From the NCBI GenBank assembly GCA_965261735.1, contig OZ253470.1:1553479-1617478 (forward strand): a DNA stretch of 64,000 nt, written 5' to 3'. This document shows positions 14,086 to 57,558 of the stretch, one piece after another; the first letter of the stretch is position 1, and each line of letters begins with the position of its first letter. A model generated the notes under the pieces. The model was not told the origin of the DNA. It did not search any database and saw nothing but the letters and a program-made list of their open reading frames with translations. Source of the stretch: Alphaproteobacteria bacterium (GTDB lineage: Bacteria > Pseudomonadota > Alphaproteobacteria > SHVV01). A program made the translations under genes and the position numbers.

Positions 14086-14125
14086 TCTGAAGCTTTCGTT
14101 CTCCTTCCACTCGAGAACATTCTCC

Positions 14126-15230: not shown

Positions 15231-15258
15231 CATCGATTTTATCGAGATTCGCGATGTC

Positions 15259-21340: not shown

Positions 21341-21356
21341 ACTTCGAGGATCAGTC

Positions 21357-22461
21357 CTTGCCTATCCGGTTAACGCCCATGACCGCTACATGTAGGGTGC
21401 CGCCACTCTCCCGAGTAAAGCTCGGCATAGGTTGGAGCAGAGGTGTCGCCCGCGATGCCGAGCAATGAGCGGAAGGCGTTGAACGGGTAGAACCGCCTGT
21501 TGAAGCGGAAGGTGAACTCGTTGAGGTAGGCTTGTAGGTGCTGGTGGCTAACGCCGTGGTGGATACCGATCAGCCACGTCTTCAGGTTGGCGAAAACCAG
21601 ATGGATGATCGGCAGGTATTGCTCGGCAACCTCTGGATCACCACACTCGGCAACAGCGAAGTGCTCATAGCCGCGCTTACCGAGGCCAGCATAGCCGCTC
21701 CAATCGTCAGTAACGATCAGCGATCGCGGCGCGACGGTGCTCTCGACGAACCCACAGAGCGACTCGGCGCTACGGTCGAGCACGACGGCGAGCCGAACGC
21801 GTCCGGCATAGCGTCCGTCTTTCCGGTTGTCGAGCTTGGTGCCCGGCTTTCGATGACGCACCTCGATGGCACAGGAGACGGGAACCTTGTGGTGAACACC
21901 ACGGCCTTCCCCACGCGTTCGCCCGCCAACCCAGGTTTCGTCCACCTCAACATGGTTCTTGGGCTGTCCACCGATCCTGTCTTGGTTGGGCCGCACCATG
22001 CCCGAGCGGAGCTTGTGGAGAATTTGAAAGGCCGTCTCGTAGCGCGAAAGACCAAGTTGCCGCTGAAACTGCACGGCGGACATGCCGGGCGTCTGACTGG
22101 CGACCAGATAAGCGGCCCAGAACCAGACGTTCAGCGGAGTGTGGCTACGCTCCATCACTGTTCCCACCGTCAGCCCGGTGTTCTGGCGGCACTTGCGGCA
22201 GCGCAGGACGCCAGGGCGGTTTTCAAAGTGGAACGGCTCTCCCGCCGTGCCGCAGTGCGGGCAGGCAAAGCCGTCTCCCCAGCGGGCTTTCTCCAGGTAG
22301 GCGGCGCAGGCCGCATCATCGGGGAAAAGTCGCTGGAACTCGGGTAGCGAATGCGGGAATGGGAGATCGGCGCGGTCGAGAACATCCATGGCGCGCTCCC
22401 CTATATCCGGGTTGCGCCCATTCTAGCCCTAGTGGGTGTGGGTGTAAACCGGATAGGCAAG
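21357..22461 (-). mobile_element. IS1595-family IS, copy 2 (1105 bp) with an 8-bp TSD
   Basis: Perfect 8-bp direct repeat GATCAGTC at 21349-21356 and 22462-22469 flanking the identical termini. Confidence 0.9.
21370..22389 (-). CDS. IS1595-family transposase
   Basis: 339 aa, nearly identical to copy 1. Confidence 0.85.
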   Translation of the reverse strand: MDVLDRADLPFPHSLPEFQRLFPDDAACAAYLEKARWGDGFACPHCGTAGEPFHFENRPGVLRCRKCRQNTGLTVGTVMERSHTPLNVWFWAAYLVASQTPGMSAVQFQRQLGLSRYETAFQILHKLRSGMVRPNQDRIGGQPKNHVEVDETWVGGRTRGEGRGVHHKVPVSCAIEVRHRKPGTKLDNRKDGRYAGRVRLAVVLDRSAESLCGFVESTVAPRSLIVTDDWSGYAGLGKRGYEHFAVAECGDPEVAEQYLPIIHLVFANLKTWLIGIHHGVSHQHLQAYLNEFTFRFNRRFYPFNAFRSLLGIAGDTSAPTYAELYSGEWRHPTCSGHGR

Positions 22462-23046
22462 GATCAGTCATTCAAGGCTAAGTTGCTGGGCACGGACCGG
22501 CTGCGGGAGATGGCAAATCCAGGGCAGCTCGGACGCTCGTATGGTGACCACTTCGCCGCTGGATACCCGAAGAGCAGCTTCGAGCACCTGCGCCAGGCGG
22601 GCGGGGAAGGATCGGGCGTCGATACCTTTCTGTTGCTTGAAGACAGACTGGACCTCCGCATCCGCGTTGAAGCGACGCTGAGCCCTCTCTTCGACCGCGA
22701 CGTAGTGCTGGACTGGGATTCCGGTAGCCTCGTGCCGAAGGCGGCGATGCGGAAAAGTGGAGAGTCTTATCGCCTAGATCGTGACGAGTGTCACGGCATT
22801 AAGGAGCTCTTGGTTCTTCTCACGCACTTGTACGATGAGCGGCACGACTACCTGATCGTCGATGAGCCGGAACTCAATTTGCATCCGCAGTATCAAACGT
22901 TCTTCATGCAGGAGGTGCGCAAGGTTACCCAAAAGCAGGATGCGAGCGGAACCGCGAAAATCGTCTTCCTGATCACGCACTCGCCGTTCATACTGGTTTT
23001 GCGGTCGCACGATGACGTCAAGTCCGTGATATCGTTCGATCTCTAA
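22462..23046 (+). pseudogene. C-terminal half of an ABC/AAA_21-type ATPase (OLD / PARIS AriA-like); N-terminus with Walker A missing
   Basis: Walker B LIVDEPELNLHP, Q/H-loop-like FLITHSP; begins exactly at the IS copy 2 TSD. Confidence 0.55.
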
Positions 23047-24522: not shown

Positions 24523-24807
24523 ATGTTCACCGTAGTCACCCCCACGACGAGTCTTAGCCTCGACGATCATTTCATAAAGCGTCCTGCGGCGACATTCTTT
24601 GTCACGGTCGAGGGCGGCGGCATGGCCGAACACGGGATCCTTGCCGGCGATACCCTGATCGTCGACCGTTCACGTACGCCAGGCACGGGTTCCATCGTCA
24701 TCGCGGTAATCGTGGGCGAGTTGACCACCCGTCCGTTCGCCGCCCTCGATGGCGAGGAGGCCCACGTCTGGGGCGTCGTCGCCGGGGTGGTGCGGAGCCT
24801 GCCATGA
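24523..24807 (+). CDS. umuD: UmuD-like (S24 LexA-fold) protein lacking the N-terminal arm and the Ser/Lys catalytic dyad
   Basis: 94 aa; aligns to the UmuD C-domain but has GGGM in place of GDSM and no Lys at the K97-equivalent position; 4-bp overlap with umuC. Confidence 0.7.
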   Translation: MFTVVTPTTSLSLDDHFIKRPAATFFVTVEGGGMAEHGILAGDTLIVDRSRTPGTGSIVIAVIVGELTTRPFAALDGEEAHVWGVVAGVVRSLP

Positions 24808-26123: not shown

Positions 26124-26796
26124 ATGAGGCCGGGGCCTTTCGGGCGGCGGGAACGAGGGCGAGAGAACGGCTCTCGCCGCCCCGCCGGGAGCCCTCGATT
26201 GACCCATTCGAAGACGGCGGCGATCGGGACGGCGATCGCGGTAATCGCGGCGCTGTTTCTCGCCGGTTACATGACCGGCGATCATGGGGTGAAGCGGATG
26301 GACGGCGCGCGGGCTCGGCGACATCGCCGGGGGGGGGGGGCCCAGGTCCACAGCCGGAAGCGGCAAGCACGGGATCGCGGCCATGGTAGCTGGAACCATG
26401 GCGGGGCTGTTTCCCGGTAGCGGGATCGGCGCCTCGCTCGACAAGCTGTGTGCGGCCCGCACACGGCAAGCGGCGCTGGAGACCGGTCCAAGCGTGGTGC
26501 CCTTGCGCTGGCGCAATCGCAACACCGATAACGCAGGGGCGATTACACCGACCCGCACCTACAGATCGGCCGCCGGAATCTACTGCAGGGAATACCAACT
26601 CACCGCGACCGCCGGCGGGCGCACCGGGCAAGCCCACGGCAGCGGCTGCCGCCAGCCCGACGGCTCGTGGCGAGTATCGAACCAGCACCGCGCCTGCCCA
26701 TGGCGACCTGCCCGGCGCTGGAACGGCGGCGATCGATTCAACTGTCCTTGCACGGTCCAGCCGTTCCGGCTCCATCCGGTTCCGTTACGCCGGTGA
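26124..26796 (+). CDS. putative membrane / glycine-zipper surface-antigen-like protein split across a G12 tract
   Basis: TM helix (AAIGTAIAVIAALFLAGY) in frame 0; glycine-zipper and YCREY...GSGC...DGSW surface-antigen-like region in frame +1 after the poly-G tract. Confidence 0.35.
26329..26340 (+). repeat. homopolymeric G12 tract
   Basis: 12 consecutive G at the frame junction of the putative surface-antigen-like gene. Confidence 0.9.
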
Positions 26797-26887: not shown

Positions 26888-28334
26888 ATGCACGACCCCG
26901 AACGCGATATCCGCGACATCCCGCTGTCCCAACTCGAACTCTCGCCCGGCAATGTGCGCAAGACGCCGGCCGATGCTTCAGCCTTCACCGAGCTCAAGGC
27001 CTCGATCGCTGCCCACGGGTTGCTCGAGAACCTGATTGCCCGCGCCATGGAACCCGGCACCGATTATGTCGTGCGCTACGCGGTGATCGCCGGCGGACGG
27101 CGGCTTGCCGTGATGCAGGCGCTGGCCGCCGAAGGCGCGCTGGACGAGGACCACCCCGTGCCCTGCCGCATGATCGGAAGCATCGTGGCGGCCGAAGAAG
27201 TTTCGCTGGCCGAGAACAGTGTCCGCGCCGCCATGCACACGGCCGATCAGGTCGAGGCATTCCGCCGCCTGGCCGATGCGGGCAGCACGGCGGGCGCCAT
27301 CGCGGCGCGTTTCGGGGTCTCGGAGCGCACCGTGGAGAAGCGCCTGCGGCTCGGCAACGCCGCACCAGTGCTGCTCGAGGCCTACCGAGCAGGCGAAATC
27401 GATCTGGACACATTGATGGCCTTCGCCGTCACCACGGATCATGCGCGCCAGAACGCGGTCTGGGCGGCGGTGAGCCAACAGGGCTACCGTCCCGGCGCCT
27501 GGCAGATCAAGCGCCTGCTGACCGAGGACCGGGTTCCGGCCACGTCCGCCATCGCGCGTTTCGTCGGCATCGAGGCTTACGAGGCGGCGGGCGGCAGGAT
27601 CGATCGCGATCTGTTCGCCGAGGAGGACGAGCGGGGGATCTGGTTCGACGATCCCGAACTCTTGAACAAGCTCGCCATGGACAGCCTCCAGGTCGCGGCG
27701 AGGGAACTGGAGACGCGCTGGAAATGGGCCGAGGCGCGGCTCGACGTGGACTGGAGCGCCACCGCGAGCTTCGGGCGGGTGCGTCCGCAACCGGCCGAGC
27801 CGACAGACGGGGAGAAGGCCGAGATCGAACGTTTGAGGACCCGCAACGACGAACTCGCCAACATGGACGACGACGGCTGGACCGAAGAATTGGTCGAGGA
27901 AGCCGATGCCAACGAGACGCGCCTGGACGAGATCGAGGCCGCGATCGACGCCCGCGCGGTCTACCGGCGCGAGGACATCGCTATCGCCGGGTGCATCGCC
28001 ACCGTCGGCAACGACGGCGAGCTCAAGCTGATCCAGGGCCTGGTCAGGCCCGAGGACATGCCCGCGCGCGAACCCAACGATGCGAACATGGCCGGACAAG
28101 ACGATACCGGCGACGGGGAGAGCGCCAGTTCCAGCATCGAGGCTCCCACACTTGCGGCTCCCCCCGCTTCGCCCGGCGAAGGACAAGTTCGCCGGTATCG
28201 AGCCGGACGCCTTGCGCCCGTCGGGGCGCTTCGATCCCAACCTCCGCAGGCAGGTCAAGCGCGACGCCGATGCGCTCACGGCGCAATTCGCGGGCTACTT
28301 CGCGCCCGCCGCCGCGGACAGGGAAGCAGCCTGA
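26888..28334 (+). pseudogene. ParB/Srx-like nuclease domain protein (ICE/plasmid type), frameshifted at a C6 tract
   Basis: ParB N-domain (IPLSQLELSPGNVRK, VIAGGRRLAV) plus HTH; the frame changes at CCCCCC (28168-28173); the C-terminus continues in the frame ending at 28334. Confidence 0.7.
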
Positions 28335-29686
28335 TGGCCGCCCATGCCCGCTCGGAATCCGCCCGGCGCGTCAGCGACTGCATGACCACGCTGCTGCGCG
28401 ACCAGCCCTTCTTCGGCAGCCTGGCGTTAAGGCTGCCGATCCGCCCCGACGAAACCCGCGAGACCCTGGCCAGCGATGGCAAGGACATCCGCTACGCGCC
28501 CCAGTGGGTGGCGGACACCGATGCCGATCAGATCAAGACCGCGCTGGCGCGCGTGGTCCTGGCCTGCGCGTTGAAGCATCATACGCGGCGGGGCAGCCGC
28601 GACCCGGAGCGCTGGCAACGGGCCTCGCAGTTGGTCACCCACGGCCTGCTGCGGGACGCAGGTTTTGCACTGCCGCCCGGCGCAGAGGCCTGGGACGCCA
28701 TCAGCGCCGAACAGGCCTACGACCGGCTTCCGGAACCGCCGGACGATGCAGAGAATCCGGGCGATGCGTCTTCATCCAGCGATGTGGATGACAGTGGCAG
28801 CGCTGCCGGCCCTCGATGCGGTGACGGCGACGAAGACCAAAGCGCTCCGCCAAATCCAACCGATGACAACAGTCCGCAAGAGCAGGACGCGCCGGGATCG
28901 GGCAGCAATAGCGCGGGCTCGAAACCATCCGGGCAGACGCCCGCCAGCCACGACCCTTGCGGCACCGGCGAGGTCATGGACGCGGACGAGCGTTGCGACG
29001 CCACCGGCCAGTCCGGCGAATCGCCTCTGGACACACCCGCCGAGGAGCAGGCGTGGGACGAAGCCATGCACCAGGCCGCCAATCTCGCGCGGGCGCAAGG
29101 CAACGCGCCTGGCGCCGTCGAGGAGACGATCCGGCAAGCGCATCGCAGCATCCTCGACTGGCGGTCGCTGTTGCGCCGCTACATGACCGATGCCGCGCGC
29201 CGCGATGATAGCTGGAGCGTCCCCAACCGGCGTTTCATCGACAGCGGCCTCTATCTGCCCTCGATGCACTCGGAGGGCATCGATGCCATCGCCATCATCA
29301 TCGACACCTCCGGATCGCTGCCGGGCGAAACGCTGGCCCTGTTCTGGGCCGAGGTCCGCGAAATCACCGCCGAACTGCAGCCGGACAGCATCTATGTCCT
29401 TCAGGTCGACGCGGTGCTGCAGGACGCAGCCCGGTATCCCGCCGGGGAACTACCGGACAGCATCACGATCAAGGGACGCGGCGGGACCGATTTCCGGCCA
29501 GGCTTCGCATGGCTTCATGAGCATGGGGTGCGCCCAAGCTGCTGCCTCTACCTGACCGACATGGAATGCGACAGCTACCCCGAGGCCGAGCCTGGCTATC
29601 CTGTAATTTATTGCAACTGGGGGCCGCCGCCGGGGACAAGGAACCGCGAGCCCTGGGGCGAGCGCATCGACATCGGACCGGCATGA
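28334..29686 (+). CDS. DUF2201-family protein (putative metallopeptidase-like N-domain plus VWA-like C-domain)
   Basis: 450 aa; the ATG overlaps the ParB-like stop (TGATG); VWA-like IIIDTSGS motif in the C-terminal domain. Confidence 0.65.
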   Translation: MAAHARSESARRVSDCMTTLLRDQPFFGSLALRLPIRPDETRETLASDGKDIRYAPQWVADTDADQIKTALARVVLACALKHHTRRGSRDPERWQRASQLVTHGLLRDAGFALPPGAEAWDAISAEQAYDRLPEPPDDAENPGDASSSSDVDDSGSAAGPRCGDGDEDQSAPPNPTDDNSPQEQDAPGSGSNSAGSKPSGQTPASHDPCGTGEVMDADERCDATGQSGESPLDTPAEEQAWDEAMHQAANLARAQGNAPGAVEETIRQAHRSILDWRSLLRRYMTDAARRDDSWSVPNRRFIDSGLYLPSMHSEGIDAIAIIIDTSGSLPGETLALFWAEVREITAELQPDSIYVLQVDAVLQDAARYPAGELPDSITIKGRGGTDFRPGFAWLHEHGVRPSCCLYLTDMECDSYPEAEPGYPVIYCNWGPPPGTRNREPWGERIDIGPA

Positions 29687-29694
29687 CACCGCGG
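29651..29694 (+). repeat. 44-bp direct repeat, copy 1 (covers the last 9 codons and stop of the DUF2201 gene)
   Basis: 39/44 identical to 30092-30135. Confidence 0.8.
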
Positions 29695-30072
29695 CTAGTT
29701 GCCGCCGGCCGCCGGCCGGGCGGGATGCAGCAGGTAATCCGGTTCACAGCTCTCCAACAGGGAAGAGGTTCGATCTTCCAGCAGCAGTTCAATACACAGG
29801 TTTTCCGCCCTGCGGCCCTCCTGCCATTCATCCCACTCGAACACCCAAACCCTGAACCGCGGAAACTTGCGCGCCGCCTTGAGCCCGGCCGAATGAAGCT
29901 TTTGGAGAAGAGGGTCCGTGTCCACGCCATCCGGCGGCCAGTCTTCGAACGTGAGGATCAATCCCTTGGCCTTGGAACTGCCCTGGCCGAATCCGGAAGG
30001 GATTTCATCGGCGAGAGGACCGATAGAGAAGAACACGGACAATGCAACGAAGATGACGAAAGTTCGGTTCAT
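29695..30072 (-). CDS. small secreted hypothetical protein (signal peptide MNRTFVIFVALSVFFSIG)
   Basis: 125 aa; exactly fills the space between the two 44-bp direct repeats. Confidence 0.45.
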   Translation of the reverse strand: MNRTFVIFVALSVFFSIGPLADEIPSGFGQGSSKAKGLILTFEDWPPDGVDTDPLLQKLHSAGLKAARKFPRFRVWVFEWDEWQEGRRAENLCIELLLEDRTSSLLESCEPDYLLHPARPAAGGN

Positions 30073-30091
30073 CCAGGTTCCTGTCCGCCAA

Positions 30092-30135
30092 CCCCGGGGC
30101 AAGCGCATCGGCATCGGACCGGCCTGATACCGCGG
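30092..30135 (+). repeat. 44-bp direct repeat, copy 2
   Basis: Encodes ...GKRIGIGPA* in frame, mirroring the DUF2201 C-terminus ...GERIDIGPA*. Confidence 0.8.
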
Positions 30136-30318
30136 GCCGCACGCCCGTAATCCTCCATATCCGTGCTCCCGCCCGCAAGGAGGCGGGTTGCGCTGAGGCC
30201 GGGTGAACCGGGGCCGGGAGAGCGAGGACACCGGCTTCCGGCATCACCCGGCCCTTCGACGGAGCCGTAAGGCCCGGGCCACGGTTCCGGCCCGCCCTTT
30301 CCAATTGGGAGATCATTC

Positions 30319-33300
30319 ATGCTCGACGCCCAACCGGCGGCGACCGCGCCCGCGCGTCCGCCTGCCATCCAGCAGCTTCAACCATCCCCAGCGATTGCCG
30401 ATACCACAGGCGTTCGCTCCAAGCCTGCCGCGTTGCTGGCCGCGGCAACCGCTCTGCTTCTTGAGCTGGAGGTGGGCCGGGCGCTCGATCCAAAGACCTT
30501 GCGCGAAGCCATGAGCGCGGCCTTCGGCGCCAATGACACGCAAGGAGCCTGGGTCTGGAAGGACGCCTACGAAGCGGCCGAAGCCGCGATGGTGCTGTTC
30601 ATCCAGCGCTACGGCCGCCTCATGCGCCGCGAGGCGGGCGCCGGACCCGGATCGGCCGCCGCCATGCTCGCCATGCTGGAGACCCTGGCGGCGCTGGAGC
30701 CGTCCCAGACACGGCGGTCGGAGGAACAGCTTGCCCTGCAACAGTTCTCCACTCCCTTGCCGCTCGCCTACGCCGCGCTGCAGGCCGCCGCCATCCGGCC
30801 CGGCGACATCGTGCTGGAACCCTCGGCCGGCACCGGCATGCTCGCCGTCATGGCCGAATGCGCCCTCGGCAAGCGCACCGATGACGCGCGATCGGGGGAT
30901 CCCCTGCACCTGAACGAGATTGCCGCCGTTCGCGCCGGGTTGCTTGCGCGATTGTTCCCAGATTCGCCGGTCACCCGTCATAACGCCGAGTCCATCGCCG
31001 ATTATCTGCCGGACCTGCGTCCCACCGTGGTGTTGATGAACCCGCCCTTTTCGGCGAGCCCCGGGGTCCAGCGCATCCGCCATGACGCGGATTTGCGCCA
31101 TCTTCATTCCGCCTTCTCCATGCTCCCGGCGGGCGGGCGGCTGGTGGCCATCACGTCGGCCGGCTGCATCCCGGGCGATACCGCCTGGAGCCGCGCCTTC
31201 GAGCGCCTCGATCCACCGCCGCGCACCGTCTTTTCCAACGCCATCGACGGGCGCGCCTACGCACGGCGCGGCACGACCTTCGATACCCGGCTGACCGTAA
31301 TCGACCGTGATCCCGCCAATGCCCAGGGCGTTCCGGTCGACGCGCGGGAATCCGTCCCCACCGCTGCCGGGTTGCTTGCAGCTATCGCCGCCAATGTGCC
31401 GCAGCGGCAGGCGGTCGTGCCAATAGCCGCGGCCCTTGTTCCGGCCGGCGATCTGTTCGGCCATGCCGCTGCACGGCCGGCCCCGCGTAAGTGGGCAGCG
31501 GCCACCGCGCCCAACACCAGATCCGCAGACCCGCAAGTCCGCGATTGGGGGCCGGTGGCCGAACTCGACTACGAAATTTCACCCGCCAACCCTGAAGGCA
31601 AGGTAAGCGAACCGGAGGCCACCCATGCCGGCGTCTACGAGCCCTGGTGTCCCCGGACCGCGCGCATTCCCGGCGCCTGCGAACATCCGACGCCGCTGGT
31701 GCAATCCGCCGCCATGGCGGCGGTGCCCCATCCCGTGCCGTCGTACCGCCCGATGCTGCCCGTGCATGTCGTGACGGACGAACTGCTGTCCGACGCCCAG
31801 CTCGAAAGCGTCATCCTCGCCGGTCAGGCGCATGAGCGCCATCTTTCCGCGCACTACCGCATCGGCGAGGGGTGGGAGACCGTCGCGCGTGTCGCCGACA
31901 ATGAAGATGACAACAGCGATGACGGCAAAAACGACGAGACAATTCACTCTGATCCCGAACCCGCCACCGATGCTACCGGCGATGGCGAAGCCCTGTCCGC
32001 GCCGGTGCGTTTCCGGCGCGGCTGGATGCTGGGCGACGGCACCGGCTGCGGCAAGGGCCGCCAGGTCGCCGCCATCATTCTCGACCACTGGCTGCGCGGC
32101 CGCCGCCGGGCGCTGTGGCTGTCCGCCTCCGACAAGCTGCTGGAAGACGCGCTCCGCGACTGGGCCGCGGTCGGCGGCAGCGAGGCCGACCTCATCCCAT
32201 TGGGTAAGTTCCGCCAGGGGGCCGAAATTCCACAAGAGGCCGGTATCCTGTTCGCCACCTATGCAACCTTGCGCTCGCCCGCCCGCCAGGGAAAGCGCTC
32301 GCGCCTCGAACAGATCGTGCGCTGGCTCGCCGATGGCATGGACGAAGACTCCCGCCATGCCTTTGGCGGCGGGACCGCGCGGCGATACCGCCCCCTCGCA
32401 GCAGGGGCGCGCCGGATTGCGTTTGCAGAACGCCTTGCCGGATGCCCGCATCCTCTATGTCTCCGCCACCGGTGCCACCACGGTGCCCGGACTTGCCTAT
32501 GCGCGGCGCCTCGGCCTGTGGAGCGGCGCGGATTCGGGCGGCGAGACGCCCTTCAAGCAACGCACCGATTTCGTCACCGCCATGGAGGCCGGCGGGGTCG
32601 CGGCGATGGAGGTGGTGGCCCGCGATCTGAAGGCCCTCGGGCTCTACCAGGCCCGTGCGCTCAGCTATGACGGGGTCGAGGTCGAGCTGCTCGAACATCC
32701 GCTGACGCCCGAGCAGCGGCGCATCTACGACGCCTATGCCGGGGCCTTCAAGGTGATCCACCGCAATATAGAAGACGCCCTGAAAGCCACCGGCATCATG
32801 GAAGGCGATGCCACCCTGAACAAGAACGCCAAGTCCGCCGCGCTGTCGGCTTTCGAGGGCGCGAAGCAGCGTTTCTTCGGCCATCTCCTGACCGCAATGA
32901 AATGTCCCTCGCTGATCCGGTTCGTGGAGGCCGATCTCGAGGCAGGTCATGCCTGCGTCATCCAGCTGGTCTCCACCGGCGAGGCTTTGCTGGACCGGCG
33001 CATCGCCGATATCCCCGTCTCGGAATGGGACGATATCTCCGTCGACCTGACGCCGAGGGAGGCGTGCCTTGAATATCTGGCGCACGCATTCCCTGTGCAG
33101 TTGCAGGAGCCATTCACCGACGACGAGGGCAATCTCATGAGCCGGCCCGTGACCGACGCCGAGGGCAACCCGGTCTTGTGCCAGGAAGCAGTCGCTGCCC
33201 GCGACTCTCTGATCGAGAAGCTCGCGGCGTTGCCGCCGGTGCAGGCGGCGCTCGACCAGATCCTGCACCGTTTCGGCGGCAAGGCCGTCGCCGAGGTCAC

Positions 33301-34855
33301 CGGCCGCTCGCGCAGGGTCCTGCGCATCGCCGATGCGTCAAGCGAGCGCCTGGCGCTGCGCAACCGTCCTGCGTCGGCCAACCTCGCCGAGACCGCCGCC
33401 TTCATGGCGGGCGACAAACGCATCCTCGTCTTCTCCATGGCCGGCGGCACCGGGCGCAGCTATCACGCCGACCTTGGCTGCGGCAACACTGCGCGGCGTA
33501 TCCATTACCTGCTGGAGCCGGGCTGGCGGGCCGACCAGGCGATCCAGGGACTGGGCCGCACCCATCGAACGCACCAGGCCTCGGCCCCCTTGTTCCGCCC
33601 CGTCACCACGGATGTGAAGGGCGAGCGGCGGTTCATTGCCACCATCGCGCGGCGTCTCGACAGCCTGGGCGCCATCACCCGGGGACAGCGGGACAGCCAG
33701 ACGGCCATGGGCGGCGGCGATGCCACCCTGTTCCGGGCCAGCGACAATCTGGAGAGCCCCTACGCCAAGGTGGCGCTGCGTCAGTTCTACATCGCGCTGT
33801 GGCGCGGCAACATTGCGGGCTGGTCCATGGACCGTTTCGAGGACGCCACCGGGCTGAAGTTGATCTGGGAAGGCTCGCTCAAGGAAGACCTGCCGCCGAT
33901 GCCCCGGTTCCTCAACCGGCTGCTGGCCCTGCCCATCGCCGAGCAGAACGAGTTGTTCGCCGAGCTGGAAACCCGCATCGAGGCCAACATCGAACAGGCC
34001 ATCGAGGCCGGGACCCACGAGCAGGGTGTCGAGACCATCCGGGCCGACTCCCTCACCGTGGCCTCGCGCGAGACGGTTCACGTTCATGAAGCCTCGGGCG
34101 CCGCCACCGAGCTTGTCGAGATCGTCCGCCGCGACCGGCTCGTGCCGCTGGCGGCCGACGATGCGCTCGCCATGCGGGACGGGCGTCCCGTCGTCAACAC
34201 CCGCTCGAAGCGCGCCGCCGTGGTCCTGCCCGCGCCGTCGCGGATGTTCGAGGACGGCGGGGTCGAGGCCCGGGTCCGCCTGGTCCGTCCCGCCGCCCGC
34301 GAGCCCATGGCCGCGGCCGAGCTTGCCGCCTCGAACTGGGAGGATTCCGGCGAAGATCGCTGGCGCGTGTTGTGGGATGCGGAAATCGAGGGGCTGCCCA
34401 GCCACACCGAATCCCGCCTGTGGCTGGTCACCGGCCTGCTGCTGCCCATCTGGGACCGATTGCCGGGCGAGAACATGCGGGTGCGCCGGCTTGCGACCGA
34501 TGCCGGGGAAAGCCTGCTCGGCCGGGTTCTGACGCCCGAGCAGGCGCACGCCTTCCGCGACGCCTTCGGACTGGCCGGCGGACCGGTCATGAGCCCGGCC
34601 GAGATGCACGAGGCGATTCTGATCCGCGGCGCGTCCTTCGATCTCGCCAACGGCTGGCGGCTTGCAAGGCGGCGCCTGATGGGCGCCGGCCGCGTCGAGA
34701 TCGAAGGACCGGCCGATAACGACCTCGCGGCGCTCAAGCGCATGGGGTGCGCCACCGAGATCGTCTCGTGGCGCACCCGTGTGTTCGTGCCCCAATACAT
34801 CGACCTCGGCCGCATCCTCGATCGCTGGCCGCTCGCGGATGCGAACCCGGCGTAA
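30319..34855 (+). pseudogene. large N6-adenine DNA methyltransferase / SNF2 (strawberry-notch-like) helicase fusion, frameshifted in helicase motif II
   Basis: MTase motif I (LEPSAGTGMLAV) and IV (NPPF); helicase Walker A GDGTGCGKGRQVA; frame switch near 32335-32375, where DEAH...APSQQGRAGLRLQ is split between frames; helicase C-domain and conserved C-terminal tail present. Confidence 0.75.
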
Positions 34856-35368: not shown

Positions 35369-35683
35369 ATGTTCGACACCCTCACACCACGCTCCACGAC
35401 CGGTGAGTTCAAAACCATGTCCTCCGCCCGGCCCGATCCCGGCGGGTTCCTGCCGGAAGCGCGGACCGGCACACGCGAAGCTGCAGCTCACATGAAGGAT
35501 CTGGCGGAACGCTTCGCCGAGCTGCGGAACGCCATCATGCGTCTGCCCGGCAACCCGTCCTGCGACGACCGCGCCGGGCTCCGCCACCGGCTTCTCCATC
35601 TCGAACACACCTTGATGAACGCGAGGGGCAGCCTCGACGACGCCGTCATCGCCATCATGGACGCCAACGACGCGGTCCTTTGA
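35369..35683 (+). CDS. hypothetical protein
   Basis: 104-aa ORF, no domain recognised. Confidence 0.35.
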   Translation: MFDTLTPRSTTGEFKTMSSARPDPGGFLPEARTGTREAAAHMKDLAERFAELRNAIMRLPGNPSCDDRAGLRHRLLHLEHTLMNARGSLDDAVIAIMDANDAVL

Positions 35684-35888: not shown

Positions 35889-38180
35889 CTACCATCGCGC
35901 GCCGCTTGCTGGGTCAGCAGCCGGAAGAGAGAGAGCAACCCCGCTGCCTGCATTGCCGACACTCGGTTCGCCGAGCCACTCGTTGAGCTTCGACCAGCGC
36001 CGCCGTCCCGAGACATTGCGCACGGCAATGGCCACCGCCTTCTTTTGTCCGACCAGCACGACCAGCCGCTTGCCGCGCGTCACGCCGGTGTAGAGCAGGT
36101 TCCGCTGGAGCATCGCGTAGTGCTGCGTCAGGACGGGGATGACGACCGCGGGATACTCCGAGCCCTGGCTCTTGTGAATCGTCGCGGCGTATGCCGGAAC
36201 CAGGGTGTCGAGTTCGCCGAAACCATAGGTGAGCGCGCGCCCGTCGAAACGTGCGGTCAGTTCGCCTTCATCGGGATCGACATCGTCGACATAGCCGATG
36301 TCACCGTTATAGACCTCCTTGTCGTAGTCGTTTTCTATCTGCATCACCTTGTCGCCGGGCGCGAAGGTCCAGCCGAAGCGCTCGACCTTGCGCTCGCCGG
36401 CGGGATTGAGGGCGGCCTGAAGCTCGATGTTGAGCGAGCGGGCGCCGGCGCCGCCGCGGTTCATCGGGCACAACACCTGAATGTCGCGCACCGGGTCGAG
36501 CCCGAAGCGCTTCGGGATGCGCGTCCTTACCAACTCGATGATCATAGGGACCGCGGTTTCCGGATCGTCCGCCTGCACGAAGTAGAAGTCGCTGTCGCCC
36601 TCGGGTTTGGAAAGATTGGGAATGGCGCCCCGGTTGATCCCGTGCGCGCTGGTGACGATCCGGCTTCGCGCCGCCTGACGGAATACCTCGGTCAGCCGCA
36701 CGACGGGGACCGCGCCGGAAGCGATGATGTCGGCCAGCACCTGGCCCGGACCGACCGACGGTAGTTGGTCGATGTCGCCGACGATCAACAGAGCGGCTTC
36801 GTCGGGAACCGCCATCAGCAATGCCCGCATCAGCATGACATCCACCATCGAGGTCTCGTCGACGACCAGAAGCCCGCAGTCGAGCGGATTGTCGGCGTTG
36901 CGCTTGAATCCCCCGCCCCTGGGATCGACCTCAAGCAGCCGATGGATCGTCATGGCCTCGAACCCGGTGGCCTCCGTCATTCGTTTGGCGGCACGGCCGG
37001 TCGGCGCGCAGAGCAGCAAGGTCACGCCCTTGGCGTCCAGGATGCGCAGGATGGCGTTGACGATGGTCGTCTTGCCCACGCCCGGCCCGCCGGTGATGAC
37101 CATGGCCTTGGAGTTCAGGGCCAGGCGAACCGCATCGGCCTGGCTCGCCGCAAGCGACAGGCCGGTCTTTCCCTCGACCCACGGTAGCGCCTTTGCGGCA
37201 TCGATATCCGGCCAGGGGAGCCTGCCGCCCGCGATCTTCATAAACCGTTCGCCGATCGCCCGTTCGGCCCGGTACAGGCCACCAAGGAATATACAGGGCG
37301 TTCCGGCGACCGTGTCCGCGACAACCGTTCCCTCGGCCAGTTCGAAGTCCAGAGCGGTTTGAACCAACTCATTCGGGACTTCCAGCAATTCAACGGAGAG
37401 CGGCGCAAGCTCTTCGGCGGGAAGGCCGCAATGGCCGTCGTCCATCGCCTCGGTCAGCGCATGGGAAATCCCCGCGCGCACCCGGATCATTGCTGTTTTC
37501 TCGATGCCGAGCTTCATGGCGATCGCGTCGGCGGTCTTGAACCCGATGCCGCGAATGTCGCGGGCAAGGCGGTACGGGTTCTCGGTCATGACCTGAACGG
37601 CATCCACGCCGTAGGTCTTGTAGATCCGCACCGCCCGCGCCGTGCCGACGCCATGGCTGTGCAGGAACACCATGATCTCCCGGATGACCTTCTGCTCGGC
37701 CCAGGCGTCGGTGATGCGTTTGGCGCGCACCCGGCCGATGCCGGTTACCTCGCGCAGCCGTTCCGGCTCCGCCTCGATGATGTCGAACACCTTCTCGCCA
37801 AACGCCTTGACCATCTTCCCGGCATAGACCGGCCCGATGCCGCGGATCATGCCGGAGCCGAGGTATTTCTCGATGCCCTCGATCGACGAGGGCTCCGAGG
37901 TGCGCATGAAGCGCGCCTTGAACTGCTGACCATGGGTGCGGTCGTTGATCCATTCCCCCGATGCGGTTATCCACTCCCCGGCCGAGACCATGGCAGCGTG
38001 GCCGACGACCGTGACCAGATCGCGATGGCCCCGGGCCTTTGTTCTCAGAACGCAGAACCCGTTATCGGGATTGTGGAACGTCACACGCTCGACCAGGCCG
38101 GCCAGAACCTCTCGGTTCGGCGATGGCCCGAGCGGGTTCGCCGGCCGATCTTTCACGCCACCGGCAAGATTCGGCGTCAT
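35889..38180 (-). CDS. recD2: RecD2-like SF1B ATP-dependent DNA helicase (RecD/TraA family, TIGR01448-like)
   Basis: 763 aa; N-terminal HhH region, Walker A GGPGVGKTT, Walker B LLVVDETSM, C-terminal SH3-like region. Confidence 0.85.
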   Translation of the reverse strand: MTPNLAGGVKDRPANPLGPSPNREVLAGLVERVTFHNPDNGFCVLRTKARGHRDLVTVVGHAAMVSAGEWITASGEWINDRTHGQQFKARFMRTSEPSSIEGIEKYLGSGMIRGIGPVYAGKMVKAFGEKVFDIIEAEPERLREVTGIGRVRAKRITDAWAEQKVIREIMVFLHSHGVGTARAVRIYKTYGVDAVQVMTENPYRLARDIRGIGFKTADAIAMKLGIEKTAMIRVRAGISHALTEAMDDGHCGLPAEELAPLSVELLEVPNELVQTALDFELAEGTVVADTVAGTPCIFLGGLYRAERAIGERFMKIAGGRLPWPDIDAAKALPWVEGKTGLSLAASQADAVRLALNSKAMVITGGPGVGKTTIVNAILRILDAKGVTLLLCAPTGRAAKRMTEATGFEAMTIHRLLEVDPRGGGFKRNADNPLDCGLLVVDETSMVDVMLMRALLMAVPDEAALLIVGDIDQLPSVGPGQVLADIIASGAVPVVRLTEVFRQAARSRIVTSAHGINRGAIPNLSKPEGDSDFYFVQADDPETAVPMIIELVRTRIPKRFGLDPVRDIQVLCPMNRGGAGARSLNIELQAALNPAGERKVERFGWTFAPGDKVMQIENDYDKEVYNGDIGYVDDVDPDEGELTARFDGRALTYGFGELDTLVPAYAATIHKSQGSEYPAVVIPVLTQHYAMLQRNLLYTGVTRGKRLVVLVGQKKAVAIAVRNVSGRRRWSKLNEWLGEPSVGNAGSGVALSLPAADPASGARW

Positions 38181-40591
38181 CCTGTTCGATCCAACTCGGC
38201 CAATCGTTCGATCAACCGTGTCTTGCGTTCGTGCCGTAGCCGAAGCGCGTTCAGGTGACCGGAGAAGGTCGCCATCGCATCGTCCTCCTCGGCCAATGCC
38301 CGCAAGTCGACAAGCAAGGCTGTCGCACGGTCGTAACCATTGGCGTTACGCTTCTCGATCTCGCTTTCGATCTCGCGCCACACGTCCTTCCCCCGCAGCC
38401 TGAGGACATCAAGACGCGCACGCCGCGCCTCCTCCGTCTCGCGTTCCCGACGCACCCGCTCGGCCTCTCGCCGTTCCACTTCGGCGGCCTCGCGCCCCTC
38501 GCGGATCGCCGCCGCGCGGACACGCAGAGCGGATACCGTCCGAAGGCCCGCCTGCATGCCTCCGGCCGCCGGCGGTACAGCCTCTCGGACACGATTGCGA
38601 ACCTCCGCCGCCACATGAGGGTCGCCCTCGGCGAGGCGATGAAGCAACGCCGCCTTCTCGGCTGCCGGGATGGCCGCAACAGCGGCACGGATAGCTTCGG
38701 ACGAAAGCGCCTGACTTGCGGCATTGGCGGCCGCTTCGGCGGCCGCCTGCACGAGATCGGAGTCGATGCGGAAGAAGCCGGCGAAGGCTTCGAGGCCGCC
38801 GGTCAGAGGGCCGATGCCCGGAATCGGCTCCCGTTCTTCGTCCCGCAGGCTCCCGTTGTCCACTGCCGCGAGCCAGATGAGATAAGGCAGGCGCCAGTCA
38901 CCAGAAATCAGTTCGGCCCGCAGTGGCGCCAGCGCGCCGAGCCAACCGGAGCCGTCGTCCCAGTCATCGTATTCGGGCGGATCGCAGTCGTCGTAAATGT
39001 CGAGGATCAGATACTCACCCAACTCCATGACTTCCGCCAGATCGCCGCCGCGCAGGAAGACGTCGAGCCGGGTGCGGTCGACAAGCCGTTTAGGCAGCCG
39101 GATCATCAGCCGGCGCGTTCCCCAGTTGGCGAGATAGAGATGCAGGTCGAACCAGCGCTCCATGAGTCGCTGCGGATCGCCCTTGAAGTCGCCCCATTCA
39201 TAGTGATTGGTGAAACTCGTGGCCGTAATCCGCGCCCGCGTCGACAACGTCCGCAGCGCTTCCCTGTCCGCCTCGCCGAGCGGGCGGCCGGCGATGAATT
39301 GATGGAGCTTGAAGGCGAATAGCGGCTCGCCGTTTCCATCGGGTACACCGCGCAAGTTCTCCGGCGTGCTGAAGCCGATCAGGGCGTTCCGGAGAGCCAC
39401 CGCGCAGTCTTCTTCGGAAAGCCCGCAATCCGCTGCCAGCGCTGCAGCAGCCCGCTCACGCGAAACGGGGCTCGCCCGCTCGGGCTTGTGATCGACATTC
39501 TTCAAGCCGATCCGTGTCTCGATCCAGATGGCCAGATCGTCCTGCGCCAGATCGACGTTCGTGCGCCCGTGGCCGACATTGCCCTTCAGGGCGGCCTCGA
39601 CCGCCGCCGCGAGCCCGGGCAATTCGCGTTCGCCGCTCCTGGACGCGTCGGTCACACGGCGGAGCGTTTCCGTAACGACCGCGTCCGCCCCGATCCGGGC
39701 ACTGAAGATTTTCGAGGCAACTTGGGCTACCGCGGCGTTCTTCTCTTCCGTGTCGCCCTCGCTTGCCATGGTCGCGGATGTGCCGACGCAGACCGGCGGG
39801 TGCTTCGGATCGCCGATCCGCGCTTTGAGGCGGCGCATCAGCATCGCCACGTCCGCGCCCTGGCGCCCGCGGTAGGTGTGCAACTCATCGAGCACGACGA
39901 ACCGCAGGCCGCGGCAGTTCTCGATGACCTTCCGGTCGAGATCGTTCTGCCGCGTCATCAGCAGTTCGAGCATCATGAAGTTGGTGAGCAGGATGTCCGG
40001 CGGGTTGTTCTTGATGCGCTCGCGTTCGTCGGCGCCTTCCTGGCCGGTGTATCGCGCGAAGGTTGGAGTATGGGGGTGGCCCGCACCGAGATAGCGCCGC
40101 AGCTCTTCCATCTGGCTGTTGGCAAGCGCGTTCATCGGATAAATGACGATGGCGCGGGTTCTGGGAGCGTCACCCGCTTTCCGCGCCTTGATCGCGGCGT
40201 CGATGATGGGAATGAAGAAACACAGCGACTTCCCCGAGCCGGTGCCGGTCGTGACGGCGTAACTCTGATTGCTCAGGGCATAGCCGACCGCCTGTTGTTG
40301 GTGCTTGCGGAGCTTGAGCGTTCGATCCCGGTCGCTGCCGGAGACGGAGAGGTCCCGAAACACTTCAGCGCATTCCGGTTCCAGGTCGCCGGCGTCGATG
40401 AAATCCTGTATCGAGCCGCCGCCGGCGTAGTGCGGATTGAGCTGGATCAGCGGCTCTGGCCAGAATCGCTTGGCCGCGTACAGTTCATCGACCTTCGCGT
40501 TCAACTCCGGCGAGCGGATGTTGGTAAATGAACGCGCGAAAGCCTTGTAGCGATCGATGACGGTTTTATCGAGATCAAATACGTCCATCAC
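38177..40591 (-). CDS. DExH-box helicase-like protein with a single YprA/MrfA-type RecA1 domain and a long, unrecognised alpha-helical C-terminal region
   Basis: 804 aa; motifs TTGTGSGKSL (I), VLDELHTYRG (II), GTSATM (III); no helicase C-domain motifs (IV-VI) detectable; Arg/Glu/Ala-rich coiled-coil tail; ATGA overlap with recD2. Confidence 0.6.
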   Translation of the reverse strand: MMDVFDLDKTVIDRYKAFARSFTNIRSPELNAKVDELYAAKRFWPEPLIQLNPHYAGGGSIQDFIDAGDLEPECAEVFRDLSVSGSDRDRTLKLRKHQQQAVGYALSNQSYAVTTGTGSGKSLCFFIPIIDAAIKARKAGDAPRTRAIVIYPMNALANSQMEELRRYLGAGHPHTPTFARYTGQEGADERERIKNNPPDILLTNFMMLELLMTRQNDLDRKVIENCRGLRFVVLDELHTYRGRQGADVAMLMRRLKARIGDPKHPPVCVGTSATMASEGDTEEKNAAVAQVASKIFSARIGADAVVTETLRRVTDASRSGERELPGLAAAVEAALKGNVGHGRTNVDLAQDDLAIWIETRIGLKNVDHKPERASPVSRERAAAALAADCGLSEEDCAVALRNALIGFSTPENLRGVPDGNGEPLFAFKLHQFIAGRPLGEADREALRTLSTRARITATSFTNHYEWGDFKGDPQRLMERWFDLHLYLANWGTRRLMIRLPKRLVDRTRLDVFLRGGDLAEVMELGEYLILDIYDDCDPPEYDDWDDGSGWLGALAPLRAELISGDWRLPYLIWLAAVDNGSLRDEEREPIPGIGPLTGGLEAFAGFFRIDSDLVQAAAEAAANAASQALSSEAIRAAVAAIPAAEKAALLHRLAEGDPHVAAEVRNRVREAVPPAAGGMQAGLRTVSALRVRAAAIREGREAAEVERREAERVRRERETEEARRARLDVLRLRGKDVWREIESEIEKRNANGYDRATALLVDLRALAEEDDAMATFSGHLNALRLRHERKTRLIERLAELDRTG

Positions 40592-40730
40592 AGGCTCTCG
40601 GCGAAAGCGGTTCGCGCAGGCCGCTTTCGTAGAATTGTCCGTCGGTCTTGCGGCCGGCGTGCCGATGGATCGTCATCAAGGCTGAGGCGTTTCAGCATCC
40701 CCTGGAGCGGTGCTTTGCGGATGACGCCCA

Positions 40731-41912
40731 TCAGGCTTTTTCCTGTCCTTCGAACCGCCCAAGCATCTCGCCCAGAGCAGTCAGCGGAACCACCTCTCCG
40801 TCTCGCCGGGATTGACGATCCGAACCTCCATAGACGACAGCCCTGGCCGCGATTTGCGGAAGCGATTTCGCTACACGGCTGAGCGAATCGAACCAGTCGG
40901 AGGCGACCGTCGCGCCCGACTTGATCTCGATGGCTCCCATGCCGTTGCCATTCTCATAGAGGAGGTCGCACTCCAAACCGTGGATATCGCGGAAAAAGGA
41001 CAGATTGGATCGGCGGCCCCGATTGAAACGGTGCTTGAGGACCTCCACCACGACCGCATTCTCGAACAGCGGCCCGCGAAGCGGATGGGTGCTCAGCTGT
41101 CCGGCATGTTCGATGCCGATGAGGTGGCTCGCCAGCCCGACATCGTAGAAATAGAGCTTGGGCGTCTTGACCAGCCGCTTGCGGATGTTGGCGTGAAACG
41201 GTGGGAGCCGGAAAACGACGTAGCTTGCTTCCAGGACCGTCAGCCAATGGCCTGCCGTGGTGTGGGAGACGCCGGCATCCGCGCCCAGGGAAGAAAAATT
41301 GGCCAGTTGCCCGACGCGCCCGGCGCACAAACGGACAAACCGGCGGAAGTTTGCGAGATTGCGGATCTCCCCGATCCGGCGCACATCGCGCTCAACATAG
41401 GTCTCGAAATAGTCGCCGAGCGCCTGCCGGGGGTCAAGCTTTCGGTCGTGAATCCGGGGATAGAAGCCGGAATACAGGATGTCGTCGATGCTGTCACTCG
41501 CGCCCGTCCGCTGGCGTTCGGCAAGCGAGAACGGCAGCAGGCGGAGCAATGCCGTGCGCCCGGCGAGCGATTGGCTTATGGCATCGGAGAGCCGGAACTG
41601 CTCGCTGCCCGTCAGCACGAAGAGGCTGTTCCGTCCCAATTCGTCGGCCAATACCTGCAGGTAGGACAGGAGTTCGGGGACGCGCTGAATCTCATCCAGG
41701 ATGGCGCCTTCGCCCAAACGTGCAAGAAAGCCCCTTGGATCGGATTCGGCGAATTCCCGCTGGTCGGGCGCTTCCAGATTGACGTATTCGAGATGCGGGA
41801 AGGCCGCGCGGCACAGCGTGGTTTTGCCGGACTGCCTTGGACCGGTCACGGTGACAAATGGATACTGCTCGAACAGCCCGGTCAGGCAGGGGGTAATCTC
41901 GCGCTCAATCAT
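40731..41912 (-). CDS. AAA+ ATPase of the COG1373 / AAA_14 + DUF4143 family
   Basis: Walker A GPRQSGKTTL; DUF4143-like C-terminal region; start at MIEREITPCL (41912). Confidence 0.75.
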   Translation of the reverse strand: MIEREITPCLTGLFEQYPFVTVTGPRQSGKTTLCRAAFPHLEYVNLEAPDQREFAESDPRGFLARLGEGAILDEIQRVPELLSYLQVLADELGRNSLFVLTGSEQFRLSDAISQSLAGRTALLRLLPFSLAERQRTGASDSIDDILYSGFYPRIHDRKLDPRQALGDYFETYVERDVRRIGEIRNLANFRRFVRLCAGRVGQLANFSSLGADAGVSHTTAGHWLTVLEASYVVFRLPPFHANIRKRLVKTPKLYFYDVGLASHLIGIEHAGQLSTHPLRGPLFENAVVVEVLKHRFNRGRRSNLSFFRDIHGLECDLLYENGNGMGAIEIKSGATVASDWFDSLSRVAKSLPQIAARAVVYGGSDRQSRRDGEVVPLTALGEMLGRFEGQEKA

Positions 41913-42479
41913 GGGCGCACCGTAGTGTGGCGATGATGTAATTGCAAACCACACTTGCAATCAATGCGAAAAGCGCTCAGTTATGAGTGGCCTCTCTGCC
42001 ACCGGCGTAATGGCGCTGGGCTCTACAGGGCAGGCCCAGAAATACCCAATCCGGGTTGTGAACAGCCGCTTGCAAATCTTCTTGAGAAGGCCGTTCGATG
42101 GTCAGTCCGTTCGTTACTGCCTTCGCAAAAAGCAGATCGAGCGCGACCCAGATCGTCATCTTGATCTGGCATTCATAACGCACGTTTCCGGTTCGCTCTT
42201 TGGAGGATACAGGAGCATCAAGGTTTGCAGCTGCTCGACCCGGTTTTTCCCTTTCGGTTTCCCTGCGCCTTCGTATTGCCTTTTTCCGTCACGGCCCGTC
42301 GCCTTCAGGATCATGCAGATGAACGCGATTAGGCGTCCAAAGAGATAGTCGACCTGTTCGAGGAATCACAGGCCTTCCTGCGTGGTTTCGGAATGCCGGA
42401 TACGAAAGCCGTTGCTGATCTTTAGAAAGCGCTGGGGACACCTTGAGTTTCAAGCTCTGGTGCGGCGTTGGATGACGGG

Positions 42480-53640: not shown

Positions 53641-53663
53641 TTCCTATCTCGCTCTACTTCTTC

Positions 53664-54768: not shown

Positions 54769-54854
54769 GTTTCTTCATGTACTGCGGGACTTATTTCCAC
54801 ATCCGATGCTACGACCAAAACAGTGCGCAAAAAAACGTACGCAGTAGTGCGGGG

Positions 54855-56673: not shown

Positions 56674-56892
56674 CTTGCCTATCCGGTTAACGCCCATGAC
56701 CGCTACATGTAGGGTGCCGCCACTCTCCCGAGTAAAGCTCGGCATAGGTTGGAGCAGAGGTGTCGCCCGCGATGCCGAGCAATGAGCGGAAGGCGTTGAA
56801 CGGGTAGAACCGCCTGTTGAAGCGGAAGGTGAACTCGTTGAGGTAGGCTTGTAGGTGCTGGTGGCTAACGTCGTGGTGGATACCGATCAGCC
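56674..56892 (-). mobile_element. IS1595-family IS fragment (right-end 219 bp only)
   Basis: Identical to the right end of the full copies, encoding the last 68 aa of the transposase; identity breaks at about 56892. Confidence 0.85.
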
Positions 56893-57558
56893 GATCGGCG
56901 CGCCGCCCATCTCCTGGCGCCAGTAGACCCAGGCGCCCAGGGGATCGCGGTCGCGCACGAAGGCGAGATAACCGGCGTCGGGACGGATGGTCTCGGCAAT
57001 CGCCATCTGTTCGATGTAGCCGTTCCAGGCCCGGGCGGCGACAGCGCCGCCACCCTCGCGCCGGCACCGGGGACAGCCCCAGGGGTTGCGGTAGCGGACC
57101 GCCCCGTTGCCGCGCAGACGTGCGGCCAGATTTTCCGGGGCAACGCGTCCCTCGGCGTTCCGCTCGAGCGCGCAGTCCGGGCACAGGAGCGGCAGCAGGG
57201 TCTGCTTCATCAGCAGCGCGACATTGCCGGGCTTGGTCACCTCGGCCACGCCGACGCCCATGTCGATCAGCCGGAACAGGATGGCATTGGCCGAATGGAC
57301 GTGGATCGTGGTCCACACCTGGTGGCCGGTATCGATGAACTGCATCACCTGGCGGGCGGCGTCGGCGTCGCGGATCTCGGAGACCATGCCGCTGGCCGGG
57401 TGGACCCGGCAGAAATGCATCAGCGCTTCCTTGAAATGCCCGGCCCGCTCATCGCCCAGGGCCGACGTCGGCACGGCGATCTGCACCGCGCCAGGGATGC
57501 GGTATTCGACCGGGTCCTCGATGGTCACGAGATTGAGCTGGCCGTCGAACTCCGCCAT
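56887..57558 (-). pseudogene. GspE/PilB/VirB11-family secretion ATPase, C-terminal fragment
   Basis: TIEDPVEY and WTTIHVHSA motifs plus a C-terminal tetracysteine CPDC...CPRC; no Walker A upstream. Confidence 0.55.

Follow-up and report, generated by a model that had tools for sequence, protein, structure and literature searches.

The window analysed here is a stretch of 64,000 nucleotides (nt) from an alphaproteobacterial genome assembly (GCA_965261735.1, contig OZ253470.1, positions 1,553,479 to 1,617,478). Between 24.4 and 35.7 kb it carries a block of genes including those for a ParB-like protein, a protein with DUF2201 domains, and a methyltransferase (MTase) joined to a strawberry-notch helicase (here denoted sno for the gene and Sno for the protein). 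The original prediction, made from the letters of the window, described the three genes as a co-directional module. The gene identities and their shared direction were borne out by the open reading frame (ORF) listing, Pfam matches, sequence motifs and a profile match to Protein Data Bank (PDB) entry 3tma. To place the locus among its relatives, species-representative genomes were scanned with the DUF2201 protein, which yielded 80 loci (numbered with the prefix L) in which neighbouring genes were sought in 10-kb flanks. Seven of these loci (L001-L006 and L011) are close relatives, 86-91% identical at the protein level, and junctions in the window were located by comparison with five to seven relatives whose nucleotide identity to it is 88-92%. 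The features at the core of the block are the following, p310 denoting a gene of about 310 amino acids (aa).

26888..28179, forward strand: N-terminal 430 codons of the ParB-like gene (ParB_N and helix-turn-helix, HTH), about 806 aa in relatives
28179..28180: deletion junction, 6.1-6.3 kb lost, with 2-5 nt of microhomology (GGYGA)
28179..28334, forward strand: tail of p310, its last 51 codons and stop, in a frame different from that of ParB; its TGA overlaps the ATG of the DUF2201 gene
26888..29686, forward strand: chimeric ORF of 932 aa, comprising ParB 1-430, about 52 out-of-frame codons and DUF2201
28334..29686, forward strand: gene of 450 aa with DUF2201_N and DUF2201 (VWA) domains, uninterrupted, with the metal-ion-dependent adhesion site (MIDAS) motif DTSGS present
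29695..30231, reverse strand: hypothetical ORF of 178 aa (125 aa as called in assembly L081), no family match
30319..32370, forward strand: 5' part of sno, 684 native codons, with the MTase domain and the helicase N-lobe, ending just before motif II
32370..32371: deletion junction, 50 nt lost, the lost sequence being GTCATCGTGTTCGACGAGGCGCACGCCATGGCCAACGCCGCAGGGTCCAA (as in L001)
32372..34855, forward strand: 3' part of sno, the remainder of AAA_34 and Helicase_C_4, 95-97% identical to relatives

Pfam matched the ParB_N and HTH region at 26888-28165. The ParB_N domain of the window scores 24.9 bits, against a Pfam cut-off of 26.3 and 28.5 bits in the full-length relative L003, and its arginine-rich box, GGRR, is present. 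A full-length ParB is not retained, the native reading ending after 430 codons at the deletion junction. We noticed that the ParB N-terminal part and the 52 residues preceding DUF2201 are placed by tblastn about 6.2 kb apart in the relatives. In blastn alignments the window tracks the relatives to 28179 and picks up again at 28175-28180, 6.1-6.3 kb further along. The same junction was obtained against five relatives, and in L001 the coordinates jump from ~3684 to ~9847. The original prediction had the ParB gene broken at a C6 tract. This is not the case: the C6 run at 28160-28165, which lies 14 nt 5' of the frame change, reads CCCCTC in relatives, a T-to-C substitution with no insertion or deletion, and the frame change itself, at 28179/28180, is the deletion of 6.1-6.3 kb. 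As judged by Pfam on the relatives' genes, the deleted segment held the C-terminal ~376 residues of the ~806-aa ParB, a 590-650-aa gene for a GHKL-like ATPase, a DUF2958 gene, a gene for a MoxR-type AAA_5 ATPase, and about 260 codons of p310, that is, all except its last 51.

The ParB frame happens to be free of stops through the out-of-frame tail of p310 and into DUF2201, resulting in the chimeric ORF of 932 aa. Public assemblies call this chimera as one gene, recorded on three contigs. An exact look-up of the 450-aa DUF2201 protein found it not on record, because gene callers use the fused ORF in its place. As the alignments have it, ParB, DUF2201 and sno are neighbours only through the deletion, and their direct adjacency is not ancestral. 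The "ParB_N + DUF2201" entry of 932 aa is thus a false domain architecture in the databases and could mislead guilt-by-association inference; the seeming three-gene module is likewise an artefact of a multi-gene deletion, and the case is mainly a cautionary one.

The second large lesion lies in sno. An MTase-strawberry-notch fusion is expected to form a single ORF of about 1440-1540 aa, and intact sno genes in L001, L004 and L005 encode 1534-1538 aa, whereas the gene of the window is split at 32370/32371. Its first ORF (30319-32366) matches positions 1-176 of the AAA_34 profile and its second (32369-34855) matches positions 194-306 and Helicase_C_4, with Pfam scores spread over the two (191 and 137 bits for AAA_34, 299 bits for Helicase_C_4); profile positions 177-193 are missing from the window. 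Alignment with six relatives demonstrated that the 50 nt absent from sno encoded VIVFDEAHAMANAAGSK, helicase motif II with its DEAH box, and that without them sno changes frame. The original prediction was therefore right to locate the break inside motif II and wrong as to its nature, a 50-nt deletion having taken the place of the presumed homopolymer frameshift. Downstream of the junction, the 3' part shows no further disruption or indels. In the 5' part the Walker A motif is present (GDGTGCGKGR), and MTase motifs I (EPSAGTG) and IV (NPPF) do not vary among 12 aligned Sno homologues. A profile built from the N-terminal alignment of Sno matches the class I methyltransferase 3tma (E=2.8e-5), and no Pfam MTase family matched the N-terminal ~450 aa at E<=0.01.

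The lesions were also seen in two other assemblies of the same lineage. L081 (ERZ25071132, 11x) matches the window at 99.74% identity along 13.5 kb, and both junctions, ParB and sno, occur in it exactly. L082 (ERZ25068966), 99.65-99.86% identical, carries the exact ParB junction and a 7-nt deletion of umuC that is described below; it aligns straight over the sno site without the 50 nt, and a 3-nt indel about 20 nt downstream blocks an exact match of the junction probe. Both differ from the window by single-nucleotide polymorphisms (SNPs), and L082 also by an IS1595 insertion. Neither the ParB nor the sno lesion lies in a homopolymer. The original prediction had left two readings of the breaks, a decaying module or homopolymer errors in the assembly. 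The deletions shared by the window, L081 and L082 favour the former, and the latter does not survive the recurrence of the same 932-aa ORF, ParB junction and 50-nt loss in two other assemblies.

It follows that an artefact of sequencing or assembly, in which the genes would be intact in the organism and the breaks homopolymer or consensus errors, is very improbable. The one observation on its side is the poly-G tract at 26329-26340, the length of which varies among assemblies (G12, G10, G9), so that the frameshift there could be technical. The lesions, though, measure ~6.2 kb, 50 nt, 34 nt and 7 nt, the two assemblies that share the main ones carry SNPs of their own and in one case an insertion, and the housekeeping genes of the window appear full length, which argues against a generally error-ridden assembly. 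We read the two main lesions as genuine deletions, for which error is not a viable account; assembly error may still account for the poly-G tract. Scarcely credible is a programmed or phase-variable frameshift, at C6 in ParB or at the sno break, that would restore full-length proteins. The C6 run just upstream of the frame change is all that speaks for it, and that run is not conserved in relatives; moreover, past the junction the reading frame is that of p310, not of ParB, and the coding sequence of motif II is physically gone. Phase variation at C6 was rejected by the alignment.

We also characterised the intact gene block in the relatives. At a query coverage of at least 50%, MoxR was found in 73 of the 80 loci, p310 in 78, ParB in 67 and the GHKL-like gene in 64, and Sno wherever the 10-kb flank extends far enough. 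The close relatives share the order ParB-GHKL-DUF2958-MoxR-p310-DUF2201-Sno, and most other loci the order (integrase/HU)-PAPS-reductase-like-MoxR-p310-DUF2201-ParB-GHKL-RadC-...-Sno. Synteny among homologues, on which the original prediction had proposed to check the module, therefore holds for MoxR-p310-DUF2201 and for ParB-GHKL as conserved neighbours, but the ParB-DUF2201-sno row of the window is not the ancestral arrangement. Genes for integrase, RadC, SSB, SRAP and PAPS reductase are frequent neighbours. Beyond the gene orf104 (listed below), next in line in the relatives are SSB, a YAcAr/SLOG protein, toprim/DUF7146 and P4-type integrases. The contigs of the 80 loci are labelled Alphaproteobacteria, Binatia, Thermodesulfobacteriota, Acidobacteria and Gammaproteobacteria, a spread that fits a horizontally mobile element, and up to five of the loci occur in one genome.

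A long ParB of ~800 aa followed directly by a GHKL-like gene of 590-650 aa is seen in 64-67 of the 80 loci (for example L003 2473-6772 and L017 13227-17381). We found no literature on this pair, no literature search having been aimed at it specifically. The GHKL assignment rests on a weak HATPase_c match (E=0.0017) and invariant ETLQN...DDGAGI motifs. Sequence searches of the PDB returned nothing useful for full-length Sno, for DUF2201, for the GHKL-like protein (single sequence and profile) or for the p310 profile. In NCBIfam no family was found for DUF2201, Sno, MoxR, p310, GHKL, DUF2958, orf104 or the 178-aa ORF (orf178), and ParB gave sub-threshold matches only; against PRTRC_parB (TIGR03734) the ParB of the window scored 67.5 bits, far under the cut-off of 278.6. 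PRTRC families were likewise absent from the conserved neighbour families scanned with Pfam.

Damage to sno was observed elsewhere. In L011 the gene shows multiple frameshifts, in L006 it is truncated, and in L086 it falls into two pieces of 555 and 959 aa, the longer of which represents a protein cluster with 156 member sequences. L085 and L087 carry insertions of insertion sequences (IS) or recombinase genes, and the protein database holds DUF2201-Sno fusion ORFs (entries P0008, P0111 and P0112). In public metagenome assemblies, many copies of sno and its neighbours are in pieces or truncated, form fusions with DUF2201 or contain IS or recombinase insertions (P0001, P0008, P0111, P0112; L006, L011, L085-L087).

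In the DUF2201 protein of the window, both Pfam families score above their cut-offs (PF13203, 145.3 bits; PF09967, 74.6 bits). The site that corresponds to HExxH in DUF2201_N reads ARVVLA in the window and in all sampled relatives from metagenome-assembled genomes (MAGs; loci L002-L076), and the sequence around it is highly conserved inside this clade. Homologues on plasmids of the beta-proteobacteria Burkholderia and Simplicispira retain HExxH, as AHEVLH or AHEVWH. With HExxH lost, the peptidase-like domain is predicted to be catalytically dead in the clade of the window. Between DUF2201 and sno, the opposite-strand ORF at 29695-30231 is conserved in four close relatives, and three lack most of it; the interval 29694-30085 is missing from L003, L005 and L011, and within the same ORF an indel of ~25 nt at 30129 distinguishes the window from L081.

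Further members of the block lie upstream of ParB and downstream of sno.

24523..24807, forward strand: umuD-like gene, 94 aa, Peptidase_S24, apparently intact, of equal length in relative L003
24804..26022, forward strand: umuC pseudogene, an intact gene of 419 aa in relatives
26124..26796, forward strand: small gene weakly like the 17-kDa surface antigen family (E=0.005), out of frame at G12, 26329-26340
35369..35683, forward strand: conserved hypothetical gene orf104, 104 aa, the last gene common to the window and relatives

In umuC a 34-nt deletion after 25092 takes out VEKYSIDECFLD, including the SIDE motif, and a second deletion, of 7 nt, follows after 25412. The short deletions at 25092/25093 and 32370/32371 each remove a catalytic acidic motif, SIDE of UmuC and DEAH of Sno; this twin loss may be coincidence or may reflect selection against active enzymes. 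The poly-G tract of the small gene is G12 in the window, G10 in L081, G9 in L082 and G19 in L011, and no copy that bears the tract has the gene in frame; L003 has no long G run, and there the gene stays in one frame. The tract could be a phase-variable (contingency) locus, a mutational hotspot or a HiFi homopolymer error.

To learn about related systems, we compared the block with plasmids and published elements. Roseobacter plasmids carry a 727-aa ParB, SSB, RadC, MTase/Sno, toprim and DUF2493 upstream of a relaxase and a type IV coupling protein. On conjugative plasmids of Burkholderia and Simplicispira, an ATPase-hypothetical-VWA (DUF2201) triad lies beside genes for a type IV secretion system (T4SS), PRTRC and DNA methylase genes, and its middle protein aligns with p310 at 31-35% identity. 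A sphingomonad conjugative plasmid has a GHKL-like gene among PRTRC, DUF736, SSB and DUF2493 genes, and homologues of the GHKL-like gene occur in 88 plasmid records. A megablast of the module against plasmids gave partial matches only, about 70-80% identical and all inside sno. The recurrence on conjugative plasmids and integrative and conjugative elements (ICEs) that the original prediction had claimed accordingly stands as a link to the roseobacter, Burkholderia and Simplicispira plasmids, but not as a direct adjacency of ParB, DUF2201 and Sno.

The closest counterpart of sno is the dyad of a DNA adenine methylase and a SWI2/SNF2 helicase known from phages, plasmids and conjugative elements (DarB-like, strawberry-notch subtype), with which it shares the order NPPF MTase, AAA_34, Helicase_C_4. 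The Prokaryotic Genome Annotation Pipeline names it 'bifunctional class I SAM-dependent methyltransferase/DEAD/DEAH box helicase', and the Sno proteins of roseobacter plasmids are 44-45% identical over the N-terminal 700 aa. The dyad has been proposed as a likely means of protecting incoming elements in cis by DNA modification (PMC5512222). Unlike the dyad, the gene of the window is split and has lost its DEAH box, and it does not lie within a polyvalent protein. A MoxR/VWA block is common to pCAR1, R478, Rts1, SXT and R391 (PMC2642839), and jumbo phages carry a pair of MoxR and a peptidase-vWA protein (PMC7824862). The MoxR(AAA_5)-p310-DUF2201 set found in 73-78 of the 80 related loci resembles this backbone block (ORF100-103 of pCAR1, likened by description), whereas the window is without MoxR and nearly all of p310, and throughout the alphaproteobacterial/MAG clade RVVLA stands in place of HExxH. 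The ParB-like gene resembles the long ParB/Srx plasmid proteins, PRTRC ParB included, in its N-terminal ParB_N and HTH, in being co-directional with ssb, radC and methylase genes, and in having no ParA nearby; it differs in that the window copy is truncated at 430 of about 806 codons and that in relatives ParB pairs with the GHKL-like ATPase and not with PRTRC genes. Finally, umuDC borders the anti-defence islands of leading regions (PMC11541004). Here umuDC lies directly upstream and co-directional, with an MTase gene, and SSB follows downstream in relatives, but the window copy is chromosomal and pseudogenised, and no oriT or relaxase was located.

A position in a leading or establishment region, as the original prediction suggested, is in line with the co-directional accessory content (umuDC, ParB and MTase in the window; SSB, RadC, SRAP, toprim and YAcAr added in relatives), but no position relative to oriT, relaxase or T4SS could be found in the chromosomal copies. 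Conjugation genes flanking the module were not found in the window either, where relaxase and T4SS genes are lacking save for a VirB11-like fragment of 223 aa at 56887-57558, 21 kb from the module.

Taken together, the results make it very probable that the stretch from 24.4 to 35.7 kb is an inactivated remnant of the accessory block, of establishment or anti-restriction type, of an alphaproteobacterial integrative mobile element, lying in an IS-rich chromosomal region. From the close relatives, the ancestral order would have been umuDC, the surface-antigen-like gene, long ParB, GHKL-like ATPase, DUF2958, MoxR, p310, DUF2201, MTase/Sno, orf104, SSB, YAcAr/toprim and integrase. Four deletions have struck this copy: 34 nt and 7 nt in umuC, ~6.2 kb between codon 430 of ParB and the 51 codons left at the end of p310, and the 50 nt of sno that hold DEAH. 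A change in poly-G length would have broken the small gene, and everything past orf104 has been lost. We infer from the literature and the context that the intact module acts early after DNA entry, where the MTase-SNF2 dyad would protect incoming DNA from restriction by methylating it. In the window, loss of the DEAH box would leave no functional helicase and hence no ATP-driven translocating methylase, no full ParB would be made, the VWA protein would be without its MoxR partner, and DUF2201 would survive only on its own or at the end of the accidental 932-aa ParB_N-DUF2201 chimera.

We next considered the age of the decay. The ratio of nonsynonymous to synonymous substitution rates (dN/dS) of changes private to the window is 0.22 for ParB_N, 0.27 for DUF2201, 0.41 for the N-terminal part of Sno (Sno_N) and 0.07 for its C-terminal part (Sno_C), a lineage-specific measure that cannot separate recent decay from retained function. 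The ratios of four close relatives with intact Sno fall in the same range, with no relaxation detectable in the window. The low ratios, together with the lack of further indels in the untranslatable 3' part of sno, suggest that the lesions are recent relative to the ~10% divergence from relatives.

Several points weigh against the remnant as we describe it. In the 10 kb around the module, chromosomal relatives have integrases, SSB and toprim, and a search there turned up no relaxase, oriT or T4SS, so that the element may be merely integrative or mobilisable and not conjugative. The relatives' loci reach left only to umuD, leaving the left end of the island unmapped; the reality of the lesions rests on three agreeing assemblies that may come from related samples; and the surviving pieces would also show low dN/dS if some of them still functioned. 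The last point bears on domestication, in which the host would keep the chimera or a stand-alone DUF2201, together with the 684-aa MTase-only fragment of Sno as an orphan adenine methylase. The uninterrupted DUF2201 with its intact MIDAS, the intact MTase motifs, the low ratios of window-private changes in all pieces, the same state in three assemblies and the other DUF2201-Sno fusions on record (P0008, P0111, P0112) would agree with it. Yet the ratio is equally low in the 3' part of sno, which cannot be translated as part of the gene, and so reflects recency and not selection; the linker of the chimera is out-of-frame junk, MoxR and p310, which precede DUF2201 in 73-78 of the 80 loci, are gone, and the adjacent genes are broken too. 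On balance we consider domestication unlikely.

Also unlikely is a reading in which the intact set (PAPS-reductase-like protein, MoxR, p310, HExxH-less DUF2201/VWA, long ParB, GHKL-like ATPase and MTase-Sno), of which some MAGs hold several copies, forms a single, so far uncharacterised DNA-entry or anti-defence machine of integrative elements, whose helicase-methylase would repeatedly be knocked out after integration as costly to the host; the window, where umuC and sno have both lost catalytic motifs and the VWA gene survives, would then display disarmament driven by the host, not neutral decay. We prefer the eroded remnant: the object in the window is a recently eroded copy of a known, poorly characterised plasmid/ICE accessory block, and its history is one of ordinary genome decay. 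As debris it offers no new mechanism, and its worth lies in the comparison, which outlines a widespread and little-studied block of MoxR-p310-DUF2201, ParB-GHKL and MTase-Sno that occurs in integrative elements as well as plasmids of alpha- and beta-proteobacteria. The by-products of note are the artefactual ParB_N-DUF2201 fusion, the conserved neighbourhood, and the loss of the peptidase motif HExxH in one clade.

The surroundings of the block are a mosaic. Positions 1-13 kb of the window hold ordinary chromosomal genes, among them rlmN, argG and typA with full-length domain matches, and the remainder is mixed. Its IS load comprises four IS1595 copies, one IS5, two IS256 and one IS21, and other debris includes a truncated integrase along with AAA_21, HsdM and VirB11-like fragments; two more integrases and a sox gene cluster are also present. 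A scan with Rfam at gathering scores and a tRNA scan of the window gave no match, hence no attachment site of the tRNA type was found. The IS1595-family copies are located as follows.

21350..22462, reverse strand: IS1595-family copy, one of four near-identical copies
14125-15237, 53662-54771 and 60393-61427: the other IS1595-family copies, the last with an internal deletion

The four copies of this 1.1-kb element are 99-100% identical. A fifth lies in L082 (4418-5530), at a position equivalent to ~29770 of the window, and the extra copy in another assembly of the same lineage indicates that the IS1595 element was active recently.

Homology between the window and its relatives ends in blastn at 35732, past orf104. 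Just beyond this end, at 35889-41960 on the reverse strand, lie an intact RecD2-like helicase (763 aa), a DEAD/ResIII helicase (804 aa) and a DUF4143 ATPase, a stretch that may be a separate island or a defence locus; RecD2 homologues were also seen in three of the 80 related loci. A second stretch of debris, at 56887-63711, contains the VirB11-like fragment, the truncated HsdM, a nucleotidyltransferase, an S24 repressor, the damaged IS1595, a P4-type tyrosine integrase and a second tyrosine integrase. Within the integrase genes, a direct repeat of 300 nt, 79% identical, was detected at 61569-61868 and 62861-63160.

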